64,000 nucleotides of DNA from a virus (Duplodnaviria; Caudoviricetes). Under the pieces are notes generated by a model that worked only from the letters and a program-made list of their open reading frames with translations, was not told the DNA's origin and searched no databases. The stretch lies in IMG/VR virus record IMGVR_UViG_3300035180_001680; one strand, written 5' to 3'. The translations under genes were made by a program, and so were the position numbers. This document shows positions 29,857 to 63,931 of this stretch, piece after piece (positions within the stretch are counted from its first letter, which is position 1; each line of letters begins with the position of its first letter).

Positions 29857-29942
29857 TTACCTTTTTATAATGTTTCACTAAACTCCCTTTATAGTGTATA
29901 AATATGGATACAGAGGGAGAGTGTGTTGTGTTGAAACAAATA

Positions 29943-31559
29943 ATGAAATACCATATTGAAACAGGGGGAACAAAAAAATTAACATCTTTGTTAGAAAATA
30001 GACCATTGATACGACAAAGAATTTTAAGTGAAACTTCCTTTTTACCACCAAACTCCCCTCCTGCAGCAAGATTTTTTTGTTTTATCAATAACATTTCACA
30101 ACTCCCCTCCTGTAAAATTTGTGGAAGGCCAACAAAATGGGGACGATTATTTTCCTCCGGTTTTAACACTTACTGTAGCGTTTCTTGTAAAAACAAAGAC
30201 CCCATCCAACAACAGTTGTGTAAAGATGGGGTGATAGCCACATTCGGAGTATCAAATATTAGTAAGGTTCCTTCTATAATTCAAAAGAAACGAGACAATT
30301 CAGTGTTACTCTATGGAGTGTCCAACCCAAACCAATTAGACAGCATAAAGTCTAAAGCGATAAACACAAACTTGCAAAGATATGGTGTTATTCATCCCAT
30401 GTTATTACCAAAGTTTCAACAAAAAGTAAGAAGAACAAACGTTGAACGGTATGGGGTGGATTATATACAACAGGAAGAAAATTTCAAACAAAAAACAAAA
30501 GCGACAAATTTACAAAAATTTTCTCGGGAACATCCTACACAAACACATATTACAGAAGACGCACTAAACAAATTAAATGATCCAGAATGGTTATTTCACC
30601 AACACGTTGAACTTAAACAACCTTTAACACAAATCGCGGAAAGGGTTGGAGTTAATGATACCACAGTGGGGAGATATTTAACAAAATTTGGAATAGAAAC
30701 GAAACACTTTCGTGAGTCTGTTGGACAAAACCAAATATCCCAATTTTTAATTAGTAATGGATTGAAGGTCGAGACGAATGTTAGAAATATTATTGCTCCA
30801 CTGGAATTAGACATATATTTACCCGAGTATAAAATTGCAATAGAATATTGTGGATTGTATTGGCATAGTGAGCAACTTGGAAAAAATTCAACATACCACT
30901 ATAACAAGTATAAATTGTGTTTGGATAAAAACATTCGTCTTTTTACAATATACGAGGATGAATGGTTCACAAAACAAACCACAATACAAGATATGTTGTT
31001 ACATAATCTAAATCGATCCACAAAATCGAGAGTGTTTGCAAGAAAATTATCTATTAAAATGGTTGGAGTGAACGAAAAGAAGAGGTTTTTTGAGCAATAT
31101 CATTTACAGGGGGATGGTCCTGGAAGTATAAATATTGGACTGTTTGAAGACAATTCTTTGGTCGCATGTATATCTGTGATACAAAACAAAGGTGGGGTGC
31201 TGTTGATTAATAGGTATGCAACATCGAAGATTGTTGTTGGGGGATTTTCACGGTTACTGTCTGCTCTGAAAAAACAATACGAGTGGAATGTTATTGAAAC
31301 ATTCGCTGATTTGCGGTATAGTCAAGGACAGTTATATTTGTCTGTTGGGTTTAAAAATGTGAAACAACTAAAACCAGACTATTATTATATAAAAAATAAT
31401 ATACGATATCATAAATTTAATTTTAGACGAAAATATCTGCCACTTCGGTTAGACAATTTTGATTCTTCTTTAAGTGAAAAACAGAACTGTGATGCTGATG
31501 GAATTCTTCGATTGTGGGATTGTGGAAAAATCAAATTCCAAACTTTTAAAAATTGGTAA
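29943..31559 (+). mobile_element. homing-endonuclease-like gene 2 (same family)
   Basis: CKIC...YCSVSC; TNLQRYGV repeats; ELDIYLPEYKIAIEYCGLYWHS; RLWDCG; TATAAATA at 29897. Confidence 0.75.
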
Positions 31560-31613: not shown

Positions 31614-31644
31614 ACCTAAACAGTTGTTATTTTTGGTGTGGTAT

Positions 31645-34600
31645 ATGACAGATAATTCAGATTACAAAAAACCAAGGACTAACCTTGTAGAGCTTTTACC
31701 AGACACGTTTAGAACAGACGTTAATAATTCATTTTTAGAAAATGGCCCAAATCGTTATTTAACGAAGTCCGAGTTAACACCTACGTTTGGAACTATTGGA
31801 AAAAAATCAACACGTTATAGTAAAAGCACAAGAATACCTGAACCATCTGTTCAACGTCAGGCCTACCAACTTCAACCACTTTTAAACTCAACGATCGCAA
31901 CTGTTAATTATCTATCTTCTTATGCTGACATTTTAACAAAAGCTTCTGATTTGGGAGTTGATCCAGAACGTTTACCGTTGTGGGGGAACACAACACAGTT
32001 TAATTTTGCACCACCTGTTGATTTTGATAAACTTGTTAATTGGGGAAAATATTATTGGTATGATCCTGCCGGTTCAGCACCTCAATATATAACAATAAAA
32101 AACACTTGCGCGAGTGCTGTGGCTCGGGTTAATGTTTTAACATCGAGTATAGCAAGCTATATTGCTGGAGGACCGGCACCAGGAGTATCTCAATCAGAAT
32201 TTGACACCACTGTTGCTCAAATGCAATCCGAACTCTCACGGCTTCAAATTATTAGAGATTGCGCTTGTTATAATGGAAGGGTTGGTTGGGATATGACACA
32301 GTGGGATGACAATTCTCTCAATTGGTGGCACATAAATGAATTTACTGCAGAACCACCTACTGGTCCTATAAATACAGCACCATCATCTCCTCCACTATAT
32401 TCATTGTGGTTTGATACTGATGCCAAGCAATTTAAACGATGGATGGGAAGTAGTTGGGTTAGTTATGATAATATATCTGAACTTACTGTTGGTTCTACTG
32501 TTTATACTTTTAACCCATTTTTTTGGTATGATATTAACGACGTTGATAAAATTAACGACTCAGATCCGATTGGAACGCCACCCCGTCCAAAACTAAGAGC
32601 ATGGGATGGAGAAAAATGGGTTCTCTTTGCTCCTTCTGATTTATCTTCGGGAATTTTTCCATGGGACTCTGTTGAATCTTCTCTCTGTGTAACCCAAACA
32701 GATGATTGGTCTGCCCAAAATAAGTGGTACCACCAAGCGGATGTTCCAAATATTTCATTGGCAATTAGAGCAACAATGCCAATTATTGAGTATAATCCGA
32801 ATATTGAATTAAACCAGTGGTCATATACAAAATATAAATGGTCGTACAGAGGAAGTTATCTACAAGATTGGATAAGCGTAGATAGTGAACCAACACTTTA
32901 TGAAATGGGTATAAAATTTAAAGTTTTAGGTATATCGACTTCTACAATATCAAACCCTGGAACAATTACTGTTGATGGTGATCATAGAAGTATGCTTCAA
33001 CCTGGGAACAAAATCCACGTCAATGAAGTACCTTCCTCTGTATTCACATTAACGATATATCAAGCAGATACGACTCACGGTCCAGGTAGTGATGGTTATG
33101 ATCCTGAAACAAACACTACTAAATTTTTAGTAGTAGAAGATACAGCACAAGTCATATTGGGATTAACAACTGATACAACAGTCGATTTTGTTCTTACCAC
33201 AACGAGTCTTGGTGACACTTGGGTAAGTTTCTTCTCACAATGGGCTTTAACAGAAACACCAACTCCGGTTCCTGTGAATCTTCAAACCCGTCCAACAGTA
33301 ATTCCTCAATTGTCATTTGGACCTTTACCTACTGCTGGATATAACACTTTTGTACTCCCTGATCTTTTCTTGGTTGGTAGAGATACTATTCGTGTTTATG
33401 TTGACGGAAAACGTCAATACGGAACGTATATTGAAGGATGGAGTACAAACATCCCCGGGGAGTACATTTCTGGGAACTTTACTGGGGCCAACGATCCATC
33501 GTATTCCAATATTGCTGAAACGGCAGTCGTTTCGTCTACTGGACATTCATATCCTGGAACACACGGGAATACAATTCAGTTCTTTGATCCTGTTTCTCAA
33601 TTTTCAAATGTATCGATAGAAACAATTCCAGCGGCACTGAGCGATCAATATCTATCTGAGATAGAAGTAAGAACTTCTACAGATGCAAATTTTTATACAA
33701 CAAACTTTAGTTCAATTTTTACAACTCTAATTAAATATCGTCTTGTTGAACAAATCAAAACCGAACAAACACAATATCCATTATTTGATATTTTTAATGT
33801 TGATGGAACAACAACCTATACAGCCAACAATATCTTTGGGTTTCAGGAAGGATCAACATATTCTGTGGATCCTAGAGTTGGTCGAAGAATTGCGGTCACC
33901 AATAATGGAAAAGAATTTGGTTTTGAACAACAATTACTTAATACTGACACAGGTGCAATAACTTGTTATAAAGATTCTTGGGCTATTGAAACTTCAAACC
34001 CCGCTGGGCTTCAAAGTATTTGGAGACGTGGAATTCCTGAATCAGATTCTCAATATGTTCCAAAACAAAGAAATGAGTATCAATTAGCTTATGGAGATTC
34101 ATATGTTGATTCTAATGGAGTAAAACGGATTGCTGGAATTGATACACCTTTGGGTCCAACAGATTGGGAAATTCCAAGTCAGATGATGTTTAACATTCAT
34201 CATGAAAACCGAAAGGTTGTGTTATTTTCAGAGATATATACTCACTTTACGTCTATTATTAATGCTCAAACCCCTCCTGTTGAGTTTAGTTCTGCAACTT
34301 CTGATTTTTATAGATTGTTAAATATACCAAACTTTGGTGTTGGTGGGACTATAAAAGAATTTAATGATAGTTATGACACATTCTTATCTGCAATGTTTCA
34401 AACGTCAACGAATCCAAGAGCTATTATTGATTTTGCTCGTTCTCGATATGATTACAATCTAACACTTCTACAAGAATACTTTTTACAGAATGCCATTTTG
34501 TTACTTACAAATATGAGCGATCCTTTCTATCAGGATATTAATAAAGCTATTTCTGATTACGTTATAACATTGTTTGAACAGAATGAATTCCTCGATAATT

Positions 34601-37600
34601 CATTTGGTGATTCAACTACACACAACACGTTAACAGGACTTGGTATTAAAAATTGGATAACAACTCTTCCATATTTAAAACTATCACGTCCAGTTGTTCC
34701 AGCAATATTATTTGATGTAGATTTGGGAATTAAACAGGTTCTTCATCATGATGGACATATTTCCAATATCTCTGTTCCGTCGTCAACATCAAAATCGATT
34801 TATACGAAACTGTTACAGTCAACAAACGGAGTTCAAGGTCCAATAACAACGCGCCCTGTTTGGCCGACGGTACAAAAAGGACAATATTGGATGGACACGG
34901 GTGGGGTGTTGTACAGATTTAATGTTATTAGTACATCTGGTGGAGCACCTTCGATTTTTAATCCAGTAGGAACATATTGGTTAGATGGAACAAGTGGACT
35001 TTTATATGTTAGAACGAACTCAGTACCACTTGGCTGGGAGATCGTTAAAGACAAAAATGGCCATATAACTCCAGGATATATTGAACCAGCTTGGAAACCA
35101 ATTGTATTGGAAGAAATTATAGCGAATGTGATTTATCAAGCTGAACTTAAATTATATGAAGCTGTTCCAGATTTTGATTCCACAGTGTTTGATTTTTCAA
35201 CACTACTATCATCAACATCTGAACAAGATGTATTCGTTACATATTTAAAAGAACAATACTTTGATTATATTCAACAGACTAACAGTAATCCATCTGTTAA
35301 CAATTTTGATATAAGCAATCCGTTTACATGGAACTATAACTCTATTTCTCCGAGTTATATTCCAGCTGTTAAAGTCGGTTCACCAACTATATGGGATGCG
35401 AGCTACCAAGGAATATATGAGAAAAACTTTGGAACGCAGTATCCACATCTTTTGCCTTGGAAATTACAAGGATATTATAACAAACCAACTTGGTGGGATA
35501 GTCAATACAAAGACACCTCTGGTCTCCGCCGTTGGACGAATTCGATGTGGAATAATATTAAAAATGGAATAATTCCCGTTGGAGCTTTACTTCCGGACAA
35601 CATCACAGTTGGAACTGGGTTAGTCGAATCTCCTACACAAGCACCGGTATACAATTTTATGTGTGTTGACACATCAACCGATACATTGCTTGCTCCATAT
35701 GTTCAAGGGAATACTAACACTTTCCTTAATAGTGTTAGTATTATCAACCAATATATCCCATCATTCTCTGACCCATTCTCTTTTGGTCAACAGGGTGTTA
35801 CGGAATATACCTGGAGAAATTCTTCTTATTTCCTATATGGATTGTTACATATTGCATTTAGAATGCAACCCGTGAGATTCCTACATGATGTGTTTGGACC
35901 AACATTTATCAACGTTGCTGGATTGCAAATTGATAACAGAACTAAAAAGGTTTACTCACACAAAGACGCAATATTCCACGGAGATTTGAATTCCGCTGAT
36001 CAGAATATTGTATTAAACGGATTAAATCAGTGGTATGTAAACTTTATTAGATTCAACAATCTTGATATAAACACTTCTGATTTTAAAGAGAAATGGATTA
36101 ATTGGAATGCAAACTTAACATACCAAACTGGCTCTTTTATTAATTCCAAATCTTTGGATGTTGCTGCAGATTATTTTTCTATTATACCTCAAGATTATCA
36201 AGTTCTTATTAAGAAAACTCCTGATATGAAAAATTTCTGGGTAGATGCTTTATTAGTAACGACAGAATCTGTAGGAACGGATTGGACTTTAAATCATAAC
36301 AACAAAGTTCCAAAATACTATGGTTCAGATTGGGTGTTTAGGTTGAGTACACCATCACCAATTGGACACACGATTAATTATTATGGTATTAAGAGTTATC
36401 CGTGTTCGTTTAATACAATTAACGACGTTGGTTCCACTATTGGTGCTATTGTGCTTCCATGGGCAAACGTTGCTGGAACACCAATCCCAGGAGAAGATAT
36501 TCTTTATGTTCAAGACGATACGTTGACATGGTTTACTGGTTCACCAGTTCAGGTAACTTCGGCAGAACTTTATCCAACTCCTCTTGCACCAAACACAACA
36601 TATTACATTATAAAAGTTGCTGATAACCAATTCAAACTTGCATCTTCGTATAATAACGCTGTTAATGGAATTTCAATTGATATAACCAGTCCTGGTTCAG
36701 CGGTATACATTGAAGAGTTAGTTGGAACATTTGTTGCTTTAGACGGAACACAAACATCAAATATATGGAAACACATTGCACTCGACAAGAGAACAACGAA
36801 TACAAGTCTTGTTCCAATGTATGTTACTGGAGTCCAATCGGTTATCAATTTAATTGATGGGTATTCAAATTGGTTAATGGACCAAGGGTGGGCTTTCAAT
36901 GAACCAGAAGCAGTAGAAGTTGATATCCAAACTGGAAAAATTTTGAATTGGCAAACAGAAATTGAACGTTTAATTGGAAGAATTTATTCTGGTTTAGGTT
37001 TGGTTACTATTCAAGGCAACCCAACGTCACCAGGTAGTATTTCAGTATTAGGTAATTTGATTCAAGGGGTGGGTTACTCGTCAGGAAAATATATTAATAT
37101 TCAAACTGAAACCATTACCGGAACAGGTTCAGGGGCAACTGTTAATATTGTGGTACAAGACAATAAGGTATTTTCTGTAAATATTAACAAAATTGGAATG
37201 CAGTATAATACGGGTGATACTATCTCTGTCCTTGGAGCTAACTTTGGAGGTGGAGACGATATAATACTTACAGTACTAAACGTTTTCCCAGTGTCGCTCA
37301 ATCAACCAATTTCAGGAGAAGTCTTACATGAAGTTAATCCTTTCAGAAACAATATATGGTTTAAAACACCACGAGGAATAATATCGAATATATATTCACA
37401 ATCTTATTCAGATGTTCGTGTTGATTCCACAGTATATGATCAGTTTGGAGATACTCTTCCAAGTTCATCTGTTTTCATATTTCGAGAAGACACGAAGAGT
37501 CGTATCAGAGAATGCTTTCTTTGTGGAAGTGTGTATTCGCAGTCAGGGGCGGTAAATTCAAACCAAGATGCAGCTATTAATCCGTATACCACTCCTCATT

Positions 37601-40341
37601 TAGGTGGTGCACACTTGTTCCTGGATGGGTATGAACATGCAATTGTTTTTAATGATTATACAACCGATGGTTTCTTAATATTTGATCCATTTATCGGATT
37701 GAGTACAAGTAAATTCACTCTTGCCTTTGAAAAAGGTGCTGCTTATACGTTTAGACCAAACATAGGTGGTTATTTCTTAAATGGTGAACAAACAGTTCAA
37801 AACATTGAAAATACTGTTGACAATATGCAATTGTATTATGATACGTTTAAAGTAAATGAAACTGCTGACTTTCTTGATTACGCTCGTGCTGCTTTAGGAT
37901 ACGAATCACCAGATTACCTTGACAATATCGGTATTAATTCAAAATCTAAATTTATATTTTGGAGAGGTATGATTCACAACAAAGGATCAATTAACGCAGT
38001 TAAAGCTTTTATTAATGCAAGATTGTTTGTTGACGCAAAAATCGACGATTTTTGGGCTTACAAAGTTGGTGAGTTTGGAAATCTAACAAGAAAATATTTT
38101 AATGACATTAACATTGAACCTGAAGATATTAAGAAAAATGAATTAAGGTTAGAATTCGCTTCTTCAAATATCGATCCAACCTTCATAACGATTACACCAA
38201 CAGATGATGTTCGTTGGGAATATTTTCCTGATCAGCGTTCTACGATAAATCCAACATTAGATTTTTATTTTAGTGCTGGTGTGATTGGTGTTATTACTGG
38301 AACATGCAATGGAAGTCCTGTTGACGTAATACTACCAAACAATGATGGTTATCAAGTTGTGAAATTTGATCCAGTTACAAAAATCTCTTCTGTTTTGGTA
38401 AGTGGCGTTTCTCAACTTAACAACAACCATATTACTATTACAAGTTCTGATAACTTTAATTATTCTGTTTATGTGTTTTCTGTTTCAAAACAAAAACACA
38501 ATCCAGCAAAGTTAATAGATAAACAATCCAAGGATGTGATATCGTCTATTATGATTTGGCATCCAGCTGTTGGATTCCATTATCAAGTTCCTATAAGTTT
38601 AATCGATATACAACGTGATAATGATCCAGCAACGTATAACAATACCATTTCATCTGGATTAACAGGAACTATGTATTATCAAGAAGAATTTGTTCCAAGA
38701 ACAAATTGGAATTCACAGGAAGTTGGAAAGATTTGGTTGCGAACTAGCTCATTTGGATATACACCATACTATGATCCAATAGTTTATCCTAACGTTAGTG
38801 ATAGAATTACAAACTGGGGCAAACCTACAGATTGGAGTTCTTTTGATGTCTTACAATGGACTGAATCTCCTGTAACTCCTGAAAATTGGGACGCGTATGT
38901 AATATCACAAGCATCTAATACAGAATTAGACCAGTATTCATTACCTTCTGGAACTCCGATGAAAGTAATTTATAGACGTGTCAATATTAACACAGATTCT
39001 ACTTTACCACCAACTTATTCAGATTATCAAAGAATAGACACAAATCCAAGAATTCAGGTTTTATATGATACTATTAGTAGTGTTTCAGTATTCCCAGTTC
39101 AATTTTTAGAACAAATTGATTTAAGGTTGGATCATAACATTGATAATGGTCAAGTTGTAAACGTTTATGTTAATGGAATATTAAAAACGACCACACACAC
39201 AACTTCTATAATAAGTACGATTTTAAATGAACCACCAACGAATCCTATGGACAAAGATTCGTATAAGGTTGGAACAATTCCGACTGGAGATTGGACACCA
39301 TTCGCAATTGGTGATATCGTTCAGTGGAATGAAACAACCTCGAGTTGGGATGTGTTAACCACTGGTGCTGAGTTTGATGCTCTTTCCAGTGTGGGTGCTT
39401 ATGTTACTTTTGATCCAACAACATTAAACGTTGGTGACACGATTACATTTGAATATCCTTTATTTAATGTTGATGTTTCAACTCTTCCGAACACGATGAT
39501 TGAATATACTTTATTTACACCATACACCAGTGTTAATACAATAGACAATCAAGGAAACATAGTAGACACAAAGTATTACTTCTGGGTTATGAATAAGAAC
39601 GTTAGACCAACGGCAACCACACTTTCATTATCTGAAATTAAATCCTTGTTGAAAGTTCCGTCAGTACCATATATGTTTATGTTGGGTATTGATGGAACAC
39701 TCCAACGTTTCAATAGTGTTGTAATCAGAGGAATTTCAAGATTTATTTCACAAAACGACAGATTTAAAGTTCGTTTCCAAACAGACGCATCTCTCCGTGA
39801 TGATAGTGATATTTCTTCCAGTCTAACAAAGAAAAATGTTCATACACAATGGGAATTGTTTAGACAAGAACAGAACGTTGTAATATCCAGAACGTTGTGG
39901 AATAAATTAACAGAGTCTGTCGTAGGATATAAGTTACATGACGATAATACTCCTGTTCCATCTTTGGATAGGGTTTTATATGATCAATTAAATGGTAGTG
40001 CAACGAGAATTGGTATGGGAGAAGGTCAAAGTTTTGTAGATAAAGATTTGGCTCTAAATACAATTATTAATGAAATTGAAAATCCAAATTATGATTTATC
40101 TCCTATTGACAAATCAGCATTTCTCGATACATACAGTTTCGATACACCAGAGAATATTTTGACTGCTATGGATTACATTTATAACACTTTTGCATACTCT
40201 GATACCAATAGAATATTTTTCTCATGTCTCCACGATGCAATGTCACTAAAAAGTGAATATGGAGACATATTTAAAACTTCAGCCATTGCGTTGCATGGAA
40301 TAAAAATATTAGAAACTTCAAAAGAGGCAATGAATGGCTAA
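31645..40341 (+). CDS. very large baseplate wedge/structural protein (~2900 aa)
   Basis: Late promoter, position after gp6, FNFAPPVDFDKLVNW and WRGMIHNKGS motifs, internal fibre-like modules. Confidence 0.75.
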   Translation: MTDNSDYKKPRTNLVELLPDTFRTDVNNSFLENGPNRYLTKSELTPTFGTIGKKSTRYSKSTRIPEPSVQRQAYQLQPLLNSTIATVNYLSSYADILTKASDLGVDPERLPLWGNTTQFNFAPPVDFDKLVNWGKYYWYDPAGSAPQYITIKNTCASAVARVNVLTSSIASYIAGGPAPGVSQSEFDTTVAQMQSELSRLQIIRDCACYNGRVGWDMTQWDDNSLNWWHINEFTAEPPTGPINTAPSSPPLYSLWFDTDAKQFKRWMGSSWVSYDNISELTVGSTVYTFNPFFWYDINDVDKINDSDPIGTPPRPKLRAWDGEKWVLFAPSDLSSGIFPWDSVESSLCVTQTDDWSAQNKWYHQADVPNISLAIRATMPIIEYNPNIELNQWSYTKYKWSYRGSYLQDWISVDSEPTLYEMGIKFKVLGISTSTISNPGTITVDGDHRSMLQPGNKIHVNEVPSSVFTLTIYQADTTHGPGSDGYDPETNTTKFLVVEDTAQVILGLTTDTTVDFVLTTTSLGDTWVSFFSQWALTETPTPVPVNLQTRPTVIPQLSFGPLPTAGYNTFVLPDLFLVGRDTIRVYVDGKRQYGTYIEGWSTNIPGEYISGNFTGANDPSYSNIAETAVVSSTGHSYPGTHGNTIQFFDPVSQFSNVSIETIPAALSDQYLSEIEVRTSTDANFYTTNFSSIFTTLIKYRLVEQIKTEQTQYPLFDIFNVDGTTTYTANNIFGFQEGSTYSVDPRVGRRIAVTNNGKEFGFEQQLLNTDTGAITCYKDSWAIETSNPAGLQSIWRRGIPESDSQYVPKQRNEYQLAYGDSYVDSNGVKRIAGIDTPLGPTDWEIPSQMMFNIHHENRKVVLFSEIYTHFTSIINAQTPPVEFSSATSDFYRLLNIPNFGVGGTIKEFNDSYDTFLSAMFQTSTNPRAIIDFARSRYDYNLTLLQEYFLQNAILLLTNMSDPFYQDINKAISDYVITLFEQNEFLDNSFGDSTTHNTLTGLGIKNWITTLPYLKLSRPVVPAILFDVDLGIKQVLHHDGHISNISVPSSTSKSIYTKLLQSTNGVQGPITTRPVWPTVQKGQYWMDTGGVLYRFNVISTSGGAPSIFNPVGTYWLDGTSGLLYVRTNSVPLGWEIVKDKNGHITPGYIEPAWKPIVLEEIIANVIYQAELKLYEAVPDFDSTVFDFSTLLSSTSEQDVFVTYLKEQYFDYIQQTNSNPSVNNFDISNPFTWNYNSISPSYIPAVKVGSPTIWDASYQGIYEKNFGTQYPHLLPWKLQGYYNKPTWWDSQYKDTSGLRRWTNSMWNNIKNGIIPVGALLPDNITVGTGLVESPTQAPVYNFMCVDTSTDTLLAPYVQGNTNTFLNSVSIINQYIPSFSDPFSFGQQGVTEYTWRNSSYFLYGLLHIAFRMQPVRFLHDVFGPTFINVAGLQIDNRTKKVYSHKDAIFHGDLNSADQNIVLNGLNQWYVNFIRFNNLDINTSDFKEKWINWNANLTYQTGSFINSKSLDVAADYFSIIPQDYQVLIKKTPDMKNFWVDALLVTTESVGTDWTLNHNNKVPKYYGSDWVFRLSTPSPIGHTINYYGIKSYPCSFNTINDVGSTIGAIVLPWANVAGTPIPGEDILYVQDDTLTWFTGSPVQVTSAELYPTPLAPNTTYYIIKVADNQFKLASSYNNAVNGISIDITSPGSAVYIEELVGTFVALDGTQTSNIWKHIALDKRTTNTSLVPMYVTGVQSVINLIDGYSNWLMDQGWAFNEPEAVEVDIQTGKILNWQTEIERLIGRIYSGLGLVTIQGNPTSPGSISVLGNLIQGVGYSSGKYINIQTETITGTGSGATVNIVVQDNKVFSVNINKIGMQYNTGDTISVLGANFGGGDDIILTVLNVFPVSLNQPISGEVLHEVNPFRNNIWFKTPRGIISNIYSQSYSDVRVDSTVYDQFGDTLPSSSVFIFREDTKSRIRECFLCGSVYSQSGAVNSNQDAAINPYTTPHLGGAHLFLDGYEHAIVFNDYTTDGFLIFDPFIGLSTSKFTLAFEKGAAYTFRPNIGGYFLNGEQTVQNIENTVDNMQLYYDTFKVNETADFLDYARAALGYESPDYLDNIGINSKSKFIFWRGMIHNKGSINAVKAFINARLFVDAKIDDFWAYKVGEFGNLTRKYFNDINIEPEDIKKNELRLEFASSNIDPTFITITPTDDVRWEYFPDQRSTINPTLDFYFSAGVIGVITGTCNGSPVDVILPNNDGYQVVKFDPVTKISSVLVSGVSQLNNNHITITSSDNFNYSVYVFSVSKQKHNPAKLIDKQSKDVISSIMIWHPAVGFHYQVPISLIDIQRDNDPATYNNTISSGLTGTMYYQEEFVPRTNWNSQEVGKIWLRTSSFGYTPYYDPIVYPNVSDRITNWGKPTDWSSFDVLQWTESPVTPENWDAYVISQASNTELDQYSLPSGTPMKVIYRRVNINTDSTLPPTYSDYQRIDTNPRIQVLYDTISSVSVFPVQFLEQIDLRLDHNIDNGQVVNVYVNGILKTTTHTTSIISTILNEPPTNPMDKDSYKVGTIPTGDWTPFAIGDIVQWNETTSSWDVLTTGAEFDALSSVGAYVTFDPTTLNVGDTITFEYPLFNVDVSTLPNTMIEYTLFTPYTSVNTIDNQGNIVDTKYYFWVMNKNVRPTATTLSLSEIKSLLKVPSVPYMFMLGIDGTLQRFNSVVIRGISRFISQNDRFKVRFQTDASLRDDSDISSSLTKKNVHTQWELFRQEQNVVISRTLWNKLTESVVGYKLHDDNTPVPSLDRVLYDQLNGSATRIGMGEGQSFVDKDLALNTIINEIENPNYDLSPIDKSAFLDTYSFDTPENILTAMDYIYNTFAYSDTNRIFFSCLHDAMSLKSEYGDIFKTSAIALHGIKILETSKEAMNG

Positions 40342-51200: not shown

Positions 51201-52721
51201 ATGTTAAAAAGTATTTTAAAACAAAATGGTATTCTAACTGAAAAAGGAATTTCTAATAATTATAAAAGAATATTAGTTAAACATCCTTCGATTGAACAAC
51301 AAATAATTGATTTTACTAAATTTCTTGATATAGAAGATTATTTACCTTCTATGAAAGAACGGTTATTGTGTATTTTCAAAGACATAACTTCGGTTCCTAG
51401 ATGTCCACAATGTGGGAAGATTTCATCATTTGTTCAATCTTCGTATAGAACTTTTTGTTCCTCAATATGTGCTCAATCCAATATTCAAACAAGAAATAAA
51501 CACAAACAAACTATGTTAAAAACATATGGTGTGGAATATGGGGGACAAACAGATGAACAAAAACAAAAAAGAAAAAATACTTGTTTGTTTCGTTACGGAG
51601 TTGATCATCATTGGAAAAATTCATCCATTCAACAAAAACGCATCAATACATTTGCTTCAAATTATGGAGTAATAAACCCTCAACAACAATACTTTAGTGA
51701 TGAAACTTTGTCGTTGTTAAATGATATAAATTGGTTGACGCATGAACACCATGTTTTACAAAAATCGTGTGCAGAAATATCCAACAATCTACAAGTAAAT
51801 CCTACCACAGTTTCGAATTACTTACACAAGTACAATATTCCTATTAAACATTTTAATACATCACTTGCTCAACGAGAAATTGGTTCATTTCTTCAAAATT
51901 TCACCTCCGTGGAACTCAACAATAGAACAATCTTAACTTCTGGTAAAGAAATTGATGTTTTTTTACCAGATTATAATATTGCTATAGAATATTGTGGATT
52001 GTATTGGCATAGTGATTATTTTGAACGTAACACCAAAAATTCACATTTAAATAAATTAAACGAATTGTTACTTAAAGACATTAGATTAATAACAATTTTT
52101 GAAGATGAGTGGACACTAAAACAGGATATAGTAAAATTGAAATTGCTTGCGATATTAGGAAAAGACCCTCGTAAACGGGTATTTGCTAGACAAACATATA
52201 TATCTAATGTTTCAACACAAGAAAAACAAATATTTTTTGAAAATACTCATATTCAAGGTAATGGTCCAAGTTCTATTAATATTGGTTTGTATGATACACA
52301 CGAACTAGTTGCTTGTATGGGATTAATCAAACAAAAAAATAATAGATATATAATTAATAGATATTCTACTTCTGCACAAGTTGTGGGAGGTTTTAGTAAA
52401 CTACTAACATATTTTATTAAAAACTATAATCCCACGCAACTTGTATCTTTTGCTGACAGAAGATGGGGAGAAGGGAATTTGTATCACAAAACTGGTTTTA
52501 GTTTGGAGTATATCATTACTCCTGATTATCATTATGTTGTTAATCACAAACGAATACACAAATTTAATTTTAGACACAACAATCTTAAAAAAATTCTTAC
52601 TAAGTATGATGAACACTCGAGTGAAGTTGTTAACTGTAAAAATAATGGAATTTTTAGAATATGGGATTGTGGGTTAATAAAGTTCACCATAAATACAGCA
52701 CAACGTGGAGAAACACAATGA
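51201..52721 (+). mobile_element. homing-endonuclease-like gene 3 (same family)
   Basis: CPQC...FCSSIC; KQTMLKTYGV; EIDVFLPDYNIAIEYCGLYWHS; RIWDCG; CATAAATA at 51170. Confidence 0.75.
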
Positions 52722-54395: not shown

Positions 54396-55883
54396 TTATG
54401 GTTTCCAAGTCCACACATCATTGCCACAATCCCATATACGATCATAACCACTATTGATCATATTATTCCATTCAGTTTTAAGTGGATCGAATAAATCCAA
54501 TTTTTCACTCAATTTGTGTTTCTGAAATACGTTCCTTGAGTATAGTTGATATGGATTGTTTCTGTGAAAATACCAATAATTGGGTGAACTTGTGTGGGAT
54601 AATGTAAACCCCAAATTTAAATATACTCCTCCTGTGTTATATCGTTTATCGCTATAGGATATTACAGACGTGGGAGATTTTTCTAAAATGAAGTGTTTAA
54701 ATAATTTAGATGCACCCCCCACAACAGTGGTGTTAAGTTTTGAAGCAAATCGGATTAATTCGTACTCTTCTTTTCCATATCGCGGTTTTCCAAAAGTCAT
54801 AACACTTACTAATTTATTTTCAAACGTAAGACCTATGTTATAAGAACTACCAACATCACCTTGAATATGATACGCATTCATAAAATTTCTTCTTTCTGAA
54901 AAATTAACATTTACGATATTACATTTTCGGGCGTATATTTTTTCAGTATTTTTATTTAATAATGATAAAATTCTCGATTTTACAATATCTTTTTTATTAA
55001 TCCACTCAACGTCTATAATGTGAATTAATCTAATACCATGTAAATTTAACATATTTGTTTTGGATATATGATATGTTCTGTTTTTTCCATTCAATTCACT
55101 ATGCCAGTATACTCCATCAATTTCTATAGCAATTGAGTATTCTGGAAGATAAACATCTACTTCTGGTCCAAACTTTTTTACTCTCGTTTGTACTTCGATT
55201 CCAAGTGAAGCAATAAAATCGCAAACTTCACGTTCTGGTTGAGATTGGAAATGTTGTTGAACGGCGATATCAAACAAATTGAATCGTTTTTGGATTAATG
55301 ACGGACTTACGTTAAGTTCTGTTGCAATCTGAATTAAGGATTTATTTTTATTCTCTTCAGTTAACCAACCTGGGTCATCAATTTTGTGTAAAATGTCTTT
55401 AATTTTAAATGTGTTTGGATAAAGACCATCTCGTAATAAATTATTTTTTTCTATTTGATCATTCTTGTGTTTATCTGATCCCAAGTAGCTTGATGTTCCG
55501 TATCTTTCAACCATTGTAGATTGAATCTGGTGCTGAATAGATGGAACTTTTGCTGGGATTTTTTCCCCATATTTATCTTCCATTTTTTGGTAATATTTTT
55601 CTCTTATTTCAGGAACTTTTTGAACACACGAGCGACAATATGTTGCATAGTGTTTTTTGCCTTGACTAAATTGAATTAAGTTAGAACAATACCCACACGT
55701 TGGAGATTCACTTATATTATGTAATATGCAATAAAGTCGTTCATATGTTGAAACGTGTTCAGGTAAAAATTTTGTTAATTCTCTGATTCGGTTAAATAAA
55801 AATTCATGTTTGTTTATAATTTTATTATACGACGGAGATATAGTTAATTTACCATTCCGTTGTATAAAAAGGTTATATTCCAT
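54396..55883 (-). mobile_element. homing-endonuclease-like gene 4 (same family)
   Basis: CGYC...YCRSC; TMVERYGT; EVDVYLPEYSIAIEIDGVYWHS; RIWDCG. Confidence 0.75.
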
Positions 55884-55973
55884 TAATTGTGATTTCACTA
55901 TATTTCATTCAACCGTTTTGTATATTATATACGAAAACCAACAAAAAGTGTATAGAAATTTACGTATAGAAAT

Positions 55974-60225: not shown

Positions 60226-60768
60226 TCATTTCGAAAGTCCTTTAATAAATTCGTTGTATGGTTTAGCCCGTTCTGTATCTTTTGCAATAGCAGGTTCTGC
60301 TTCAGGCCATCTTCCCTTGATGATATAACGAGCATACCAATAAGCCCACCGTGGATCTTTTGTAATAACATGTTCTGCTTTAGGAAATCTTCCTTTGATG
60401 ACATCACGAGCATACCAATAAGCCCAACGTGGATCTTTTGCAATAGCAGGTTCTCCTTCAGGCCATCTTCCTTCAATGACATCACGAGCATACAAAAAAG
60501 CCCATTCTGGATCTTTTGCAATAGCAGGTTCTCCTTCAGGCCACTTTCCCTTGATGACATCACGATCATAACTATAAGCCCACTGTGGATCTGTTGCAAC
60601 AACAGATTCTGCTTCTTTTTTCTGTTGTGCGTTTAATTTTCCACTTTTTAGTGCCTCATATGCCATCTGTGGAGTAGCCATGTGCTTTTTATCAAACCCA
60701 TGCAATTTTTCTGGGTTTGAATGATATTTGTATAAATCCATTGCTTCAAACAAGTCGCGTAATTTCAT
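60226..60768 (-). CDS. 26-aa repeat protein, copy A (4 repeats)
   Basis: 62-aa N-module + 4x26 + 14-aa cap = 180 aa. Confidence 0.9.
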   Translation of the reverse strand: MKLRDLFEAMDLYKYHSNPEKLHGFDKKHMATPQMAYEALKSGKLNAQQKKEAESVVATDPQWAYSYDRDVIKGKWPEGEPAIAKDPEWAFLYARDVIEGRWPEGEPAIAKDPRWAYWYARDVIKGRFPKAEHVITKDPRWAYWYARYIIKGRWPEAEPAIAKDTERAKPYNEFIKGLSK

Positions 60769-61385
60769 TTCGAAAGTCCTTTGATGAATTCGTTGTAATT
60801 TTTAGCCCACTTTGGATCTTTTGCAATAGCAGGTTCTCCTTCAGGCCATCTTTCTTTGATGACATCACGAGCATACCCATAAGCCCACTTTGGATCTTTT
60901 GCAATGACAGATTCTGCTTCAGGCCATCTTCCTTTGATGACATCACGAGCATACCCATAAGCCAACTCTGGATCTTTTGCAATAGCAGGTTCTCCTTTAG
61001 GAAACCTTCCTTTGATGACCTCACGAGCATACCAATAAGCCAAACGTGGATCTTTTGCAACAGTAGGTTCTGCTTCAGGAAATCTTTCCTTGATGACATC
61101 ACGAGCATAAATATAAGCCAAACGTGGATCTTTTGCAATGACAGATTCTCCTTTAGGCCATCTTCCCTTGATGACATCATGAGCATACTCATAAGCCCAC
61201 TTTGTGTCTGTTGCAACAACAGATTCTGCTTCTTTCTTTTGTTGTGCATTCAGTTTTCCACTCTCCAGTGCCTCATATGCCATCTCAGGCGTAGCCATGT
61301 GCTTTTTATCAAACCCATGCAATTTTTCTGGGTTTGAATGATATTTGTATAAATCCATTGCTTCGAGTAAGTCACGTAGTTTCAT
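60765..61385 (-). CDS. 26-aa repeat protein, copy B (5 repeats)
   Basis: 62 + 5x26 + 14 = 206 aa; ATGA overlap. Confidence 0.9.
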   Translation of the reverse strand: MKLRDLLEAMDLYKYHSNPEKLHGFDKKHMATPEMAYEALESGKLNAQQKKEAESVVATDTKWAYEYAHDVIKGRWPKGESVIAKDPRLAYIYARDVIKERFPEAEPTVAKDPRLAYWYAREVIKGRFPKGEPAIAKDPELAYGYARDVIKGRWPEAESVIAKDPKWAYGYARDVIKERWPEGEPAIAKDPKWAKNYNEFIKGLSK

Positions 61386-62080
61386 TTCGAAAGTCCTTTG
61401 ATGTCTTGTTTATACCGTTTAGCATATGTTGGATCTTTTGCAATAGCAGGTTCTTATTCAGGCCATCTTCCTTTGATGACAGAACGAGCATAATTATAAG
61501 TCCAACGTGGGTCTTTTGCAATAGCAGGTTCTGCTTCAGGCCATCTTCCTTTGACGGCATCACGAGCATACAAAAAAGCCCATTCTGGATCTTTTGCAAT
61601 AGCAGGTTCTCCTTTAGGAAATCTTTCTTTGATAACATTACTAGCATACCAATAAGCCCACCGTGGATCTTTTGCAATAGCAGGTTCTCCTTCAAACCAT
61701 CTTCCTTTGATGACATCACGAGCATACAAAAAAGCCCATTCTGGGTCTTTTGCAATAGCAGGTTCTGCTTCAGACCATCTTCCTTTGATGACATCACGAG
61801 CATACAAAAAAGCCCATTCTGGGTCTTTTGCAATAGCAGGTTCTGCTTCAGACCATCTTCCTTTGATGACATTACGAGCATAACTATAAGCCCACTGTGG
61901 ATCTGTTGCAACAACAGACTCTGCTTCTTTTTTCTGTTGTGTGTTTAATTTTCCACCTTTTAATGCAAAAAAAGCCATCTCAGGAGTAGCCATGTGTTTT
62001 TTATCAAACCCATGCAATTTTTCTGGATTCGAGTGATATTTGTATAAATCCATTGCTTCAAACAAGTCGCGTAATTTCAT
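61382..62080 (-). pseudogene. 26-aa repeat protein, copy C (6 repeats) with in-frame TAA
   Basis: TAA at 61454-61456 replaces the G/A codon of WPE(G/A)EP. The frame continues 23 codons to KGLSK-TGA, which overlaps the ATG of copy B. Confidence 0.85.
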
Positions 62081-62775
62081 TTCGAAAGTCCTTTGATGTC
62101 TTGTTTATACCGTTTAGCATATGTCGGATCTTTTGCAATAACAGGTTCTGCTTCAGGAAATCTTCCTTTGATGACATTACGAGCATAATACGAAGCCCAC
62201 TGTGGATCTTTTGCAATAACAGATTCTGCTTCAGGAAATCTTCCTTTGATGACATTACGAGCATACCAATAAGCATACTGTGGATCTTTTGCAATAGCAG
62301 GTTCTCCTTCAGGCCATCTTCCTTTGATGGCACCACGAGCATACTCATAAGCCCATTCTGGATGTTTTGCAATAGCAGGTTCTCCTTCAGGCCATCTTCC
62401 TTTAATGACATCATGAGTATACCAATAAGCATACTCTGGATGTTTTGCAATAGCAGGTTCTCCTTCAGGCCATCTTCCTTTAGTGACATCATGAGTATAC
62501 CAATAAGCATACTTTGGATCTTTTGCAATAGCAGGTTCTCCTTCAGGCCATCTTCCTTTGATGGCATCACGAGCGTACTCATAAGCCCACCGTGGATCTG
62601 TTGCAACAACAGACTCTGCTTCTTTTTTCTGTTGTGCGTTTAATTTTCCACCTTTTAATGATTCAAAAGCCATCTCAGGCGTAGCCATGTGCTTTTTATC
62701 ATATCCATGCAATTTCTCTGGATTTGAGTGGTATTTGTATAAGTCCATTGCTTCGAATAAGTCACGTAATTTCAT
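62077..62775 (-). CDS. 26-aa repeat protein, copy D (6 repeats)
   Basis: 62 + 6x26 + 14 = 232 aa. Confidence 0.9.
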   Translation of the reverse strand: MKLRDLFEAMDLYKYHSNPEKLHGYDKKHMATPEMAFESLKGGKLNAQQKKEAESVVATDPRWAYEYARDAIKGRWPEGEPAIAKDPKYAYWYTHDVTKGRWPEGEPAIAKHPEYAYWYTHDVIKGRWPEGEPAIAKHPEWAYEYARGAIKGRWPEGEPAIAKDPQYAYWYARNVIKGRFPEAESVIAKDPQWASYYARNVIKGRFPEAEPVIAKDPTYAKRYKQDIKGLSK

Positions 62776-63314
62776 TTTGAAAGTCCTTTAATAAATTCGT
62801 TGTATGGTTTAGCCCACTCTGGATGTTTTGCAATAACAGGTTCTGCTTCAGGAAATCTTTCTTTGATGACATCACGAGCATACCCATAAGCCCACTCTGG
62901 ATCTTTTGCAATAACAGATTCTGCTTCAGGAAATCTTCCTTTGATGACATTACGAGCATACTCATAAGCCCAATCTGCTTTTTTTGCAATAGCAGGTTCT
63001 CCTTCAGGCCATCTTCCTTTGATGACATAACGAGCATACAAACAAGCCCAACGTGTATCTTTTGCAATGACAGATTCTCCTTTAGGAAATCTTTCTTTGA
63101 TGACATTACGAGCATACAAACAAGCCCATCTTGGATCTGTTGCAACAACAGACTCTGCTTCTTTTTTCTGTTGTGCGTTTAATTTTTCACCTTTTAATGC
63201 TTCAAAAGCCATCTCAGGCGTAGCCATGTGCTTTTTATCATATCCATGTAACTTCTCTGGATTTGAATGATATTTATATAAATCCATTGCTTCGAACAGA
63301 TCACGTAATTTCAT
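62772..63314 (-). CDS. 26-aa repeat protein, copy E (4 repeats)
   Basis: 180 aa, same architecture. Confidence 0.9.
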   Translation of the reverse strand: MKLRDLFEAMDLYKYHSNPEKLHGYDKKHMATPEMAFEALKGEKLNAQQKKEAESVVATDPRWACLYARNVIKERFPKGESVIAKDTRWACLYARYVIKGRWPEGEPAIAKKADWAYEYARNVIKGRFPEAESVIAKDPEWAYGYARDVIKERFPEAEPVIAKHPEWAKPYNEFIKGLSK

Positions 63315-63931
63315 TTCGAAAGTCCTTTAACAAATTCTTTGTATTTTTTAGCCCATTCTGGATCTTTTGCAATAACAGGTTCTGCTTCAGGAAATCTTCT
63401 TTTAATGACATCACGAGCATACCCATAAGCCCACTGTGGATCTTTTGCAATAGCAGGTTCTCCTTTAGGAAATCTTCTTTCGATGACTTGTTGAGCATAC
63501 ACATAAGCCCAATCTGCTTTTTTTGCAATAGCAGGTTCTCCTTTAGGAAATCTTTCCTTGATGACATTACGAGCATACAAACAAGCCCACTTTGGATCTT
63601 TTGCAATAGCAGGTTCTCCTTCAGGCCATCTTCCTTTAGTGACATCATGAGTATACCAATAAGCATACTCTGGATCTTTTGCAATAGCAGGTTCTGCTTC
63701 AGGAAATCTTCCTTTGATGATATCATCAGCATAATTATAAGCCCAACGTGGATCTTTTGCAATAACAGACTCTGCTTCTTTTTTCTGTTGTGCGTTTAAT
63801 TTTCCACTCTTTAGTGCTTCAAAAGCCATCTCAGGAGTAGCCATGTGTTTTTTATCATATCCATGTAACTTCTCTGGATTTGAGTGGTATTTGTATAAAT
63901 CCATTGCTTCGAATAAGTCACGTAATTTCAT
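63311..63931 (-). CDS. 26-aa repeat protein, copy F (5 repeats)
   Basis: 206 aa, same architecture. Confidence 0.9.
   Translation of the reverse strand: MKLRDLFEAMDLYKYHSNPEKLHGYDKKHMATPEMAFEALKSGKLNAQQKKEAESVIAKDPRWAYNYADDIIKGRFPEAEPAIAKDPEYAYWYTHDVTKGRWPEGEPAIAKDPKWACLYARNVIKERFPKGEPAIAKKADWAYVYAQQVIERRFPKGEPAIAKDPQWAYGYARDVIKRRFPEAEPVIAKDPEWAKKYKEFVKGLSK

Follow-up and report, generated by a model that had tools for sequence, protein, structure and literature searches.

A 27-gene phage array of predicted alpha-solenoid repeat proteins with a positively selected face: a candidate repertoire of binding surfaces

The DNA analyzed here (hereafter the window) is a stretch of 64,000 nucleotides from a tailed phage (Duplodnaviria, Caudoviricetes; IMG/VR record IMGVR_UViG_3300035180_001680). 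Close to its end, on the minus strand at positions 60226-63931, lies a series of tandem genes whose products are built from a 26-residue repeat that is nearly constant except at a few positions. The question raised by this locus is whether the few variable positions form a recognition code comparable to that of TALE or PPR proteins, with each repeat contributing a set of specificity residues for a nucleic acid or peptide target, as had been proposed in a preliminary description made from the sequence alone. The evidence makes it moderately probable that the genes represent a germline repertoire of candidate binding surfaces carried on capped solenoids, with proteins as the likeliest targets.

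A period of 78 nt was detected with Tandem Repeats Finder across positions 60277-63778. According to the list of open reading frames (ORFs) and their translations, the region contains six tandem genes of 180-232 codons each; a single long repeat protein is ruled out, as the translations give six separate genes in the window and 27 in the full array. The window corresponds to the minus strand of G000:C1:14880-78879, G000 being a viral record of 84,887 bp with an estimated completeness of 25%. The array extends past the end of the window and comprises 27 tandem genes (G000:C1:359-18654, 18.3 kb) with 153 complete repeats, 152 of which are distinct; the six genes of the window are the final six. 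Each gene encodes a 57-residue head, followed by 26-residue repeats (4-11 copies over the array) and a C-terminal cap. In the six genes of the window the head is near-identical among the copies, the cap has 19 residues and the repeats number 4-6 per gene. Neighboring genes are chained via ATGA overlaps of stop and start codons. Reading frames are intact in 25 of the 27 genes, gene 10 being frameshifted and gene 25 containing an in-frame TAA, beyond which the frame (frame 2 translation) runs on intact to a normal junction. The 30 repeats on which the preliminary description was based agree with the 29 complete repeats and the one interrupted by this TAA that were found in the window.

Positions within the repeat were numbered as in the preliminary description, position 1 being the W of the motif W-A-Y-x-Y-A. 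Among the complete repeats of the window, A at position 2, Y at position 5 and E at position 18 are invariant (29/29 each), and A at 22 (28/29), I at 10 (26/29), K at 11 (27/29), K at 23 (24/29) and P at 25 (25/29) are nearly so. All of these had been listed as nearly fixed before; the listing does not hold for position 14 (W/F, 16/13), and R at 13 and I at 21, which are equally fixed (28/29 each), had been missing from it. Position 14 is one of several two-state sites of the scaffold, the others being E/K at 16, G/A at 17, P/S at 19 and V/A at 20; in the repeats at positions 60226-63931 these sites are found in many combinations. The variation is concentrated where it had been described, at 26/1, 3-4 and 7-8. 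Over the 153 repeats, the highest entropies were 3.25 bits at position 4, 2.59 bits at position 26, 2.23 bits at position 8, 1.82 bits at position 7, 1.72 bits at position 1 and 1.51 bits each at positions 3 and 24, with values of 1.2 bits or less at most scaffold positions. No fewer than 12 residue types occur at position 4, W, L, G, A, V and M among them. In 116 metagenomic homologues (477 repeats) the most variable positions are identical to those of the array, and the pattern of variability therefore belongs to the family and not to the array alone.

The structure of the gene 24 protein was predicted with AlphaFold2. A first model based on 12 paralogues (predicted local distance difference test, pLDDT, of only 62.5) was superseded by a model based on an alignment of 130 sequences, which reached a pLDDT of 94.4 and a predicted template modeling score (pTM) of 0.85. 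According to this model each gene encodes a small capped alpha-solenoid, its helical caps being formed by the latter half of the head and by the C-terminal cap. The modeled repeat consists of helix A (12-13 residues, positions 25 to 10), the loop G-R-W/F-P-E-G/A-E and a one-turn helix B of four residues. The variable positions 26, 1, 4, 7 and 8 are spaced i, i+1, i+4, i+7 and i+8 along helix A, and the conserved A2, Y5, A6, V9 and I10 are placed on the side opposite to them; in the model, the conserved face of the long helix is turned inward, with positions 26, 1, 4, 7, 8 and partly 3 opposite. The helical moment of the entropy profile of helix A is 0.46, a value reached by 1.3% of permutations (p = 0.013). 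The earlier suggestion that the variable residues fall on one face of a helix is borne out by this moment and by the spacing in the model. Positions 26, 7 and 8 are presumably exposed, as their residues are mostly charged or polar; positions 1 and 3, where aromatic residues prevail, may be half buried.

Comparison with solved structures yielded no close relative of the model. A sequence search of the PDB gave no match, and the best rows of a Foldseek search were generic or designed helical repeats, none better than an E value of 0.08 or a template modeling (TM) score of 0.28. In an exhaustive structural comparison with VIA-align the top hit was a designed helical hairpin (Z 7.3), followed by generic solenoids; Z did not exceed 6 against HEAT-type chains, and no Pfam match to HEAT or armadillo repeats was found.

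Selection was assessed by Nei-Gojobori counting of synonymous and nonsynonymous differences across all pairs of repeats. The repeats overall gave proportions of 0.125 for synonymous (pS) and 0.190 for nonsynonymous (pN) differences. Divided by the global pS, pN amounted to 4.8 at position 4, 4.1 at position 26, 2.8 at position 8, 2.6 at position 7 and 2.5 at position 1, and to 0 at positions 5 and 18. The head (pS 0.42, pN 0.038, ratio 0.09) is under strong purifying selection. Third-position diversity at four-fold sites was 0.02 in the repeats, 0.22 in the head and approximately 0.36 in head codons 1-36, while the nucleotide diversity at variable codons of the repeats reached 0.6-0.7 (maximum 0.69). 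In view of the near-invariant silent sites, the repeat DNA is either homogenized or constrained at the nucleotide level.

A related phage, represented by L009 (JGI 3300037010) and L010 (JGI 3300035181), carries at least 12 tandem paralogues with 83-94% nucleotide identity. Its array is without one-to-one orthologues to the present one, and the genes that follow it are different and include a papain-like peptidase. When each of the 54 repeats of L009 was paired with its nearest repeat in the phage of the window, the ratio of nonsynonymous to synonymous change (omega) was 2.27 at the six variable codons (bootstrap 95% confidence interval (CI) 1.56-3.49) and 1.14 in the scaffold (CI 0.83-1.68). 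One near-orthologous gene pair of the two phages (94% identical) differs in the head by 8 synonymous and 4 nonsynonymous changes and in the repeats by 1 and 10, respectively. A dN/dS above 1 at the variable sites, which the preliminary description had named as a check, was thus obtained consistently in three separate comparisons.

These values bear on an explanation by relaxed constraint, in which the array proteins would have a structural or DNA-condensing role, for instance as basic internal head proteins, and their exposed residues would undergo neutral drift and recognize nothing. The basic character of the array proteins, the T4-like nature of the phage (baseplate, clamp and RNase H genes) and the gp21-type L-x-E motif in the head would all suit such a role, and in any solenoid the greatest variability is usually found on exposed helix faces. 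Neutral drift, however, predicts an omega of about 1, against observed values of 2.3-4.8, and it agrees poorly with a nucleotide diversity at variable codons that exceeds the diversity at four-fold sites of the same repeats to the extent given above, or with the preservation of intact frames in nearly all of the genes. Drift is accordingly regarded as a very improbable source of the pattern.

Targeted mutagenesis, by a diversity-generating retroelement (DGR) or another kind of local hypermutation, could have made the variable codons in place of selection. Variation that is tightly confined to a few codons amid near-identical DNA would be expected from it, and some DGR target genes have been listed with PcfJ-like motifs ahead of their variable region (PMC5758913). 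The variable codons of the array differ, however, in each of their three positions and at all four bases (T, G, C and A), and an adenine-specific signature was looked for in these codons without success. A reverse transcriptase (RVT_1) was not found in the 85-kb record, which is a genome fragment, so that both hallmarks of a DGR variable protein, a nearby reverse transcriptase and adenine-specific variation, are missing from this fragment. The related array was stable across two samples (one difference in 5,007 nt between L009 and L010), and 153 targets without a visible template repeat would be unprecedented. On this evidence targeted mutagenesis is the least credible of the explanations considered, with a probability close to nil. 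At the W/F site TGG and TTT occur with zero intermediates, and therefore old repeat types appear to have been reshuffled rather than altered by local hypermutation. It is concluded that the germline diversity of the array was produced by positive selection acting on mutation and recombination, in otherwise homogenized repeat DNA.

As to what the selected face recognizes, its residues were first considered as combinations. The 153 repeats contain 130 distinct six-residue sets, one of which recurs seven times. There are 48 different pairs at positions 4 and 8, the top four accounting for 31% of the repeats, and 77 different triples at positions 26, 1 and 4 (top four, 22%). The strongest covariation between variable positions is found between adjacent codons (3-4, 24-26 and 7-8); recurring residue sets are attributed to short shared tracts for this reason, and the couplings are read as linkage of such tracts and not as a functional code. 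The most frequent residues at the variable positions are Y (18.7%), W (16.1%), R (15.5%), D (10.5%) and E (8.8%), and the net charge of the variable face ranges from -5 to +4 per protein. A Tyr/Trp/Arg-rich, roughly uncharged composition is typical of protein recognition, as in interface hot spots and antibody binding sites, while under a code of one letter per repeat only few residue combinations would be expected, each of them used again and again. Since Tyr, Trp and Arg abound on a roughly uncharged face that is without a small residue alphabet, its targets, as judged from sequence, are most likely proteins or peptides rather than nucleic acids, and of the two target types that had been envisaged the peptide is the favored one.

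In such a repertoire the stripes of 4-11 stacked repeats would join into one long binding surface, and the 27 translationally coupled genes would provide 27 different surfaces simultaneously. Owing to the near-identity of the repeat DNA, repeat cassettes could be reshuffled by recombination, and selection would retain the amino-acid novelty. Speculatively, the targets could be variable host proteins such as defense factors, and the conserved head might dock on a constant partner, the weakly PcfJ-like protein encoded upstream; alternatively, the head might be a leader with a cleavage site behind Glu8, in the manner of T4 internal proteins. The full scenario, a co-expressed cocktail of 27 solenoids that are directed against variable host proteins and either serve the PcfJ-like protein as targeting subunits or are delivered along with the DNA after leader processing, is offered tentatively and is considered possible but doubtful.

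Several points weigh against a repertoire of protein-binding surfaces. The omega of the scaffold is approximately 1.1-1.3, so that fast change is not all confined to the proposed face; this value is ascribed to the balanced two-state sites (W/F, E/K, G/A, P/S, V/A). The dN/dS values were counted on recombining paralogues instead of being estimated with a tree-based codon model. That the variable residues are exposed is inferred from helical periodicity and residue chemistry, not from coordinates. The array is a metagenome assembly of highly similar repeats, and two of its 27 genes are broken. A three-repeat member with the same head, P0004 (154 aa, on a contig of 211,186 bp), is absent from the 27 genes of the 84,887-bp record, which suggests another assembly or a close phage variant with a different repeat or copy number. 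With regard to processing of a leader after Glu8 and delivery, a gp21-type protease (PF03420) was not found in the 85-kb record (approximately 25% of the genome), in which the controls were silent too, and this variant is treated as a lead only. Finally, the proteins are basic overall (isoelectric point (pI) approximately 9; net charge +3 to +19 in 26 of 27), which would suit nucleic-acid binding, the conserved K11 and R13 flank the variable stripe, and the spacing of positions 26, 1 and 4 resembles the PUF recognition triplet.

These last features would favor a nucleic-acid code of the kind used by TALE, PPR and PUF proteins, with every repeat responsible for one base of RNA or single-stranded DNA. 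An alpha-solenoid with one specificity stripe per repeat is the architecture expected of such a reader, the i, i+1, i+4 spacing of 26/1/4 is that of PUF repeats, position 1 is mostly aromatic, and the repeat DNA is homogenized at silent sites as in TALE genes. The model weakly matched PUF domains, at Z 5.2 and 4.7, as well as PPR-like mitoribosomal proteins, at Z 5.2-5.5. These scores (overall Z 4.7-5.5, root-mean-square deviation 5-6 Å) are, however, in the background range that any helical repeat reaches, and no Pfam match to the PPR, PUF or TAL families was found (E of 1 or less for PPR and PUF). The pairs and triples counted above do not form a small alphabet, the residues W, L, G, A, V or M are frequent at position 4, the variable face is without net positive charge, and each protein has just 4-11 repeats. 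Matches to the DNA-binding profile HTH_35 (PF13693) are partial, covering just profile positions 20-49 or 33-49 of 75; none of them passes alone, and totals of 16-27 bits are the sum of recurring partial hits. A nucleic-acid code is therefore judged improbable, and less so than drift or targeted mutagenesis.

TALE proteins of Xanthomonas and Ralstonia have repeats of 33-35 residues with two variable loop residues (12-13) and few types of repeat-variable diresidue; each repeat reads one base, and one protein contains at least 15 repeats. Shared with them are tandem repeats that are near-identical in DNA with the variation placed in few codons (here 0.02 at silent sites, up to 0.69 at variable codons). 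The present unit, in contrast, has 26 residues (78 nt), its 4-6 variable positions lie on a helix face, the repeats are distributed over 27 genes, and a small reused alphabet is missing (130 sets in 153 repeats; top four 4/8 pairs, 31%). Repeats of PUF and PPR proteins have 35-36 residues and small polar alphabets; these proteins, too, are alpha-solenoids with specificity residues at fixed helix positions, but they differ from the array proteins in unit length, and no Pfam match to either was obtained at an E value of 1 or less. With DARPins, alphaRep and designed armadillo repeat proteins the array proteins share a capped solenoid, a constant scaffold and diversified surface positions. The best Foldseek rows were in fact designed armadillo repeat proteins bound to peptides, although weak (E 0.13-0.32, TM 0.21-0.28); unlike these engineered binders, the array is natural, phage-encoded and diversified by evolution, and its 26-residue unit is without a close solved relative. 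Of the proposed specificity stripe there remains a positively selected face on TALE-like homogenized repeat DNA, with no sign of a letter code per repeat; a code of the TALE/PPR type with one letter per repeat finds no support, given the number of residue sets, the missing small alphabet and the low number of repeats per protein.

A candidate partner of the solenoids is encoded next to the array. In 44 of 120 homologues the repeats follow an N-terminal domain marked by the motif GTxWCT. An ORF with the same motif, which is cut by the end of the record, lies outside the window and ends shortly before array gene 1; it is homologous to the fused domain of the relatives (E 1e-14 and 8e-8). As the domain is fused in the relatives and the homologous ORF adjoins the array, the partner is a separate neighboring gene here; compared with the fused homologues, which have the same repeat and the same variable positions, the domain is encoded apart and the repeat part is amplified to 27 tandem copies. 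The GTxWCT domain of one homologue (P0017) was matched by the PcfJ-like model PF14284 with 22.9 bits (E 8e-5), below the gathering cut-off of 25, and PF14284 matched neither P0049 nor the upstream ORF. The PcfJ resemblance is therefore only a lead. If it is followed, the DGR targets mentioned above provide, by analogy, a second case of a PcfJ-like domain ahead of a diversified module; beyond PMC5758913, no paper mentioning PcfJ-like motifs was found in the literature on PcfJ.

The partner gives rise to a variant of the repertoire reading in which the solenoids are targeting subunits that dock via the head on the upstream PcfJ-like protein and confer 27 specificities on it. Fusion of the parts in many homologues and their adjacency as split genes here would be in line with this variant, as would the strong purifying selection on the head and the order of PcfJ-like domain and variable module in DGR targets. 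PcfJ-like domains are, however, without known function, and the Pfam match is under the cut-off; the domain is absent from many homologues, polyprotein relatives chain many head-repeat-cap modules without such a domain between them, and the upstream ORF is truncated. A complex prediction of a solenoid with the truncated ORF gave a median score of 0.01, which speaks neither for nor against docking. Docking on this partner is thus considered unlikely, though less so than a nucleic-acid code.

The head also bears on the alternative role as a leader. The sequence L6-F7-E8, followed by A9, is present in all 27 array proteins (27/27). The prohead protease gp21 of T4 cuts after L/I-X-E, and for T4 internal protein III the N-terminal 10 residues are enough to have it packaged into the head (PMC9026906). 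The internal proteins of T-even phages have been described as diverse defense proteins that have only the targeting leader in common (PMC3012670). The array resembles these proteins (IPI*, IPII, IPIII) in belonging to a T4-like phage and in encoding small basic proteins with a conserved L/I-X-E leader and a diverse body; a leader of about 10 residues ending in L/I-X-E, as in T4-type internal proteins, is present, the motif being short and the evidence accordingly weak. The internal proteins of T4, on the other hand, have unrelated non-repeat folds and are encoded by three genes.

A similar motif is found in large relatives of the array proteins. In the metagenomic proteins P0121, P0124, P0128 and P0133 (819-2,253 residues) the head-repeat-cap module is joined up to approximately 13 times. 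The module junctions keep (V/T/L/I)-x-E followed by A, S or T at 35 internal sites, and these proteins may be polyproteins that are cut after Glu; the junction motif is compatible with such processing and equally with a conserved structural N-cap. A scan of the large relatives for fused domains yielded ankyrin repeats once and no enzyme.

The 26-residue alpha-solenoid repeat is a new, unnamed and very widespread family. No model in Pfam, PHROG or NCBIfam covers it, and matches to HTH_35, FF and Phage_FRD3 were rejected as partial-profile artefacts. The automatic 'winged helix DNA-binding' names of relatives result from repeated partial HTH_35 matches and are therefore no evidence of DNA binding. 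In a collection clustered at 90% identity, more than 1,652 of 8,000 scored candidates matched the repeat; an exhaustive search of clusters at 50% identity gave 5,321 matches at E values of 1e-3 or less, 475 of them at 1e-30 or less. In the ESM Atlas, nearly all assignments of the neighboring clusters are to tailed phages. Multiple copies occur in other large phage records, among them a 190-kb record with 21 matches in several clusters. Searches for related loci with single array proteins yielded one locus each, and no match was found by blastn and tblastn in 50,697 phage records (cultured phages). The literature searched contained no description of a phage with dozens of co-expressed, positively selected solenoid variants, and nothing relevant turned up in the literature on jumbo-phage repeat families.

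The coordinates of the array genes in the window and of the adjoining features are summarized in Table 1. In the array, an AGGA motif is located approximately 8 nt before the ATG of the next gene, inside the last codons of the cap (K-G-L-S-K; e.g., positions 61382-61400 and 62077-62095, minus strand). In view of this distance and of the stop codon overlapping the start codon (ATGA), the conserved tail of the cap probably doubles as the ribosome-binding site of the following gene.

Table 1. Location of the array genes within the window and of the features adjoining the array.
Feature	Position	Strand	Content and remarks
GTxWCT-motif ORF, cut by record end	G000:C1:2-349 (L006:2-349)		Directly precedes array gene 1; outside the window
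Array gene 22 of 27, 206 aa	63311..63931	-	Head, 5 repeats (63371-63760), cap; ORF and translation
Array gene 23, 180 aa	62772..63314	-	Head, 4 repeats (62832-63143), cap; ATGA overlap with neighbors
Array gene 24, 232 aa	62077..62775	-	Head, 6 repeats (62137-62604), cap; protein chosen for modeling
Array gene 25, 208 aa as read	61454..62080	-	Head, 5 full repeats; TAA (61454-61456) within repeat 6
Remainder of gene 25 past the stop	61382..61453	-	End of repeat 6, intact cap, in frame, ATGA junction
Array gene 26, 206 aa	60765..61385	-	Head, 5 repeats (60825-61214), cap
Array gene 27 (last of the array), 180 aa	60226..60768	-	Head, 4 repeats (60286-60597), cap
First gene 3' of the array, 104 aa	59771..60085	-	PHROG matches (E 9e-18) to phage families of unknown function

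The first gene 3' of the array has no match in Pfam or NCBIfam and is outside the repeat family. Genes in the neighborhood encode a sliding clamp, an RNase H-type exonuclease, baseplate wedge and hub proteins, a ribonucleotide reductase and homing endonucleases; from this gene set the virus is therefore assigned to the large T4-like phages. The window also contains three paralogous genes for large homing/HNH endonucleases (29904-31559, 51201-52721 and 54396-55898; PHROG 3339, E 1e-105 to 1e-116) and, between baseplate-type genes, an ORF of 2,905 codons (31624-40341, plus strand).

Naming the repeat family would annotate thousands of proteins that are currently 'hypothetical' or misnamed 'HTH'. 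As the repeat is short and seemingly very regular, and variation is tolerated at known positions, it may also offer a natural scaffold for the engineering of binders. Diversified repeat surfaces are already known from eukaryotic immunity, bacterial effectors and engineered binders, and the phage array would be a new case. If the repertoire reading is true, the array would be a viral counterpart of the variable lymphocyte receptors and of NLR/LRR clusters, and if its targets are host defense proteins, it would read out the conflicts that the phage faces.

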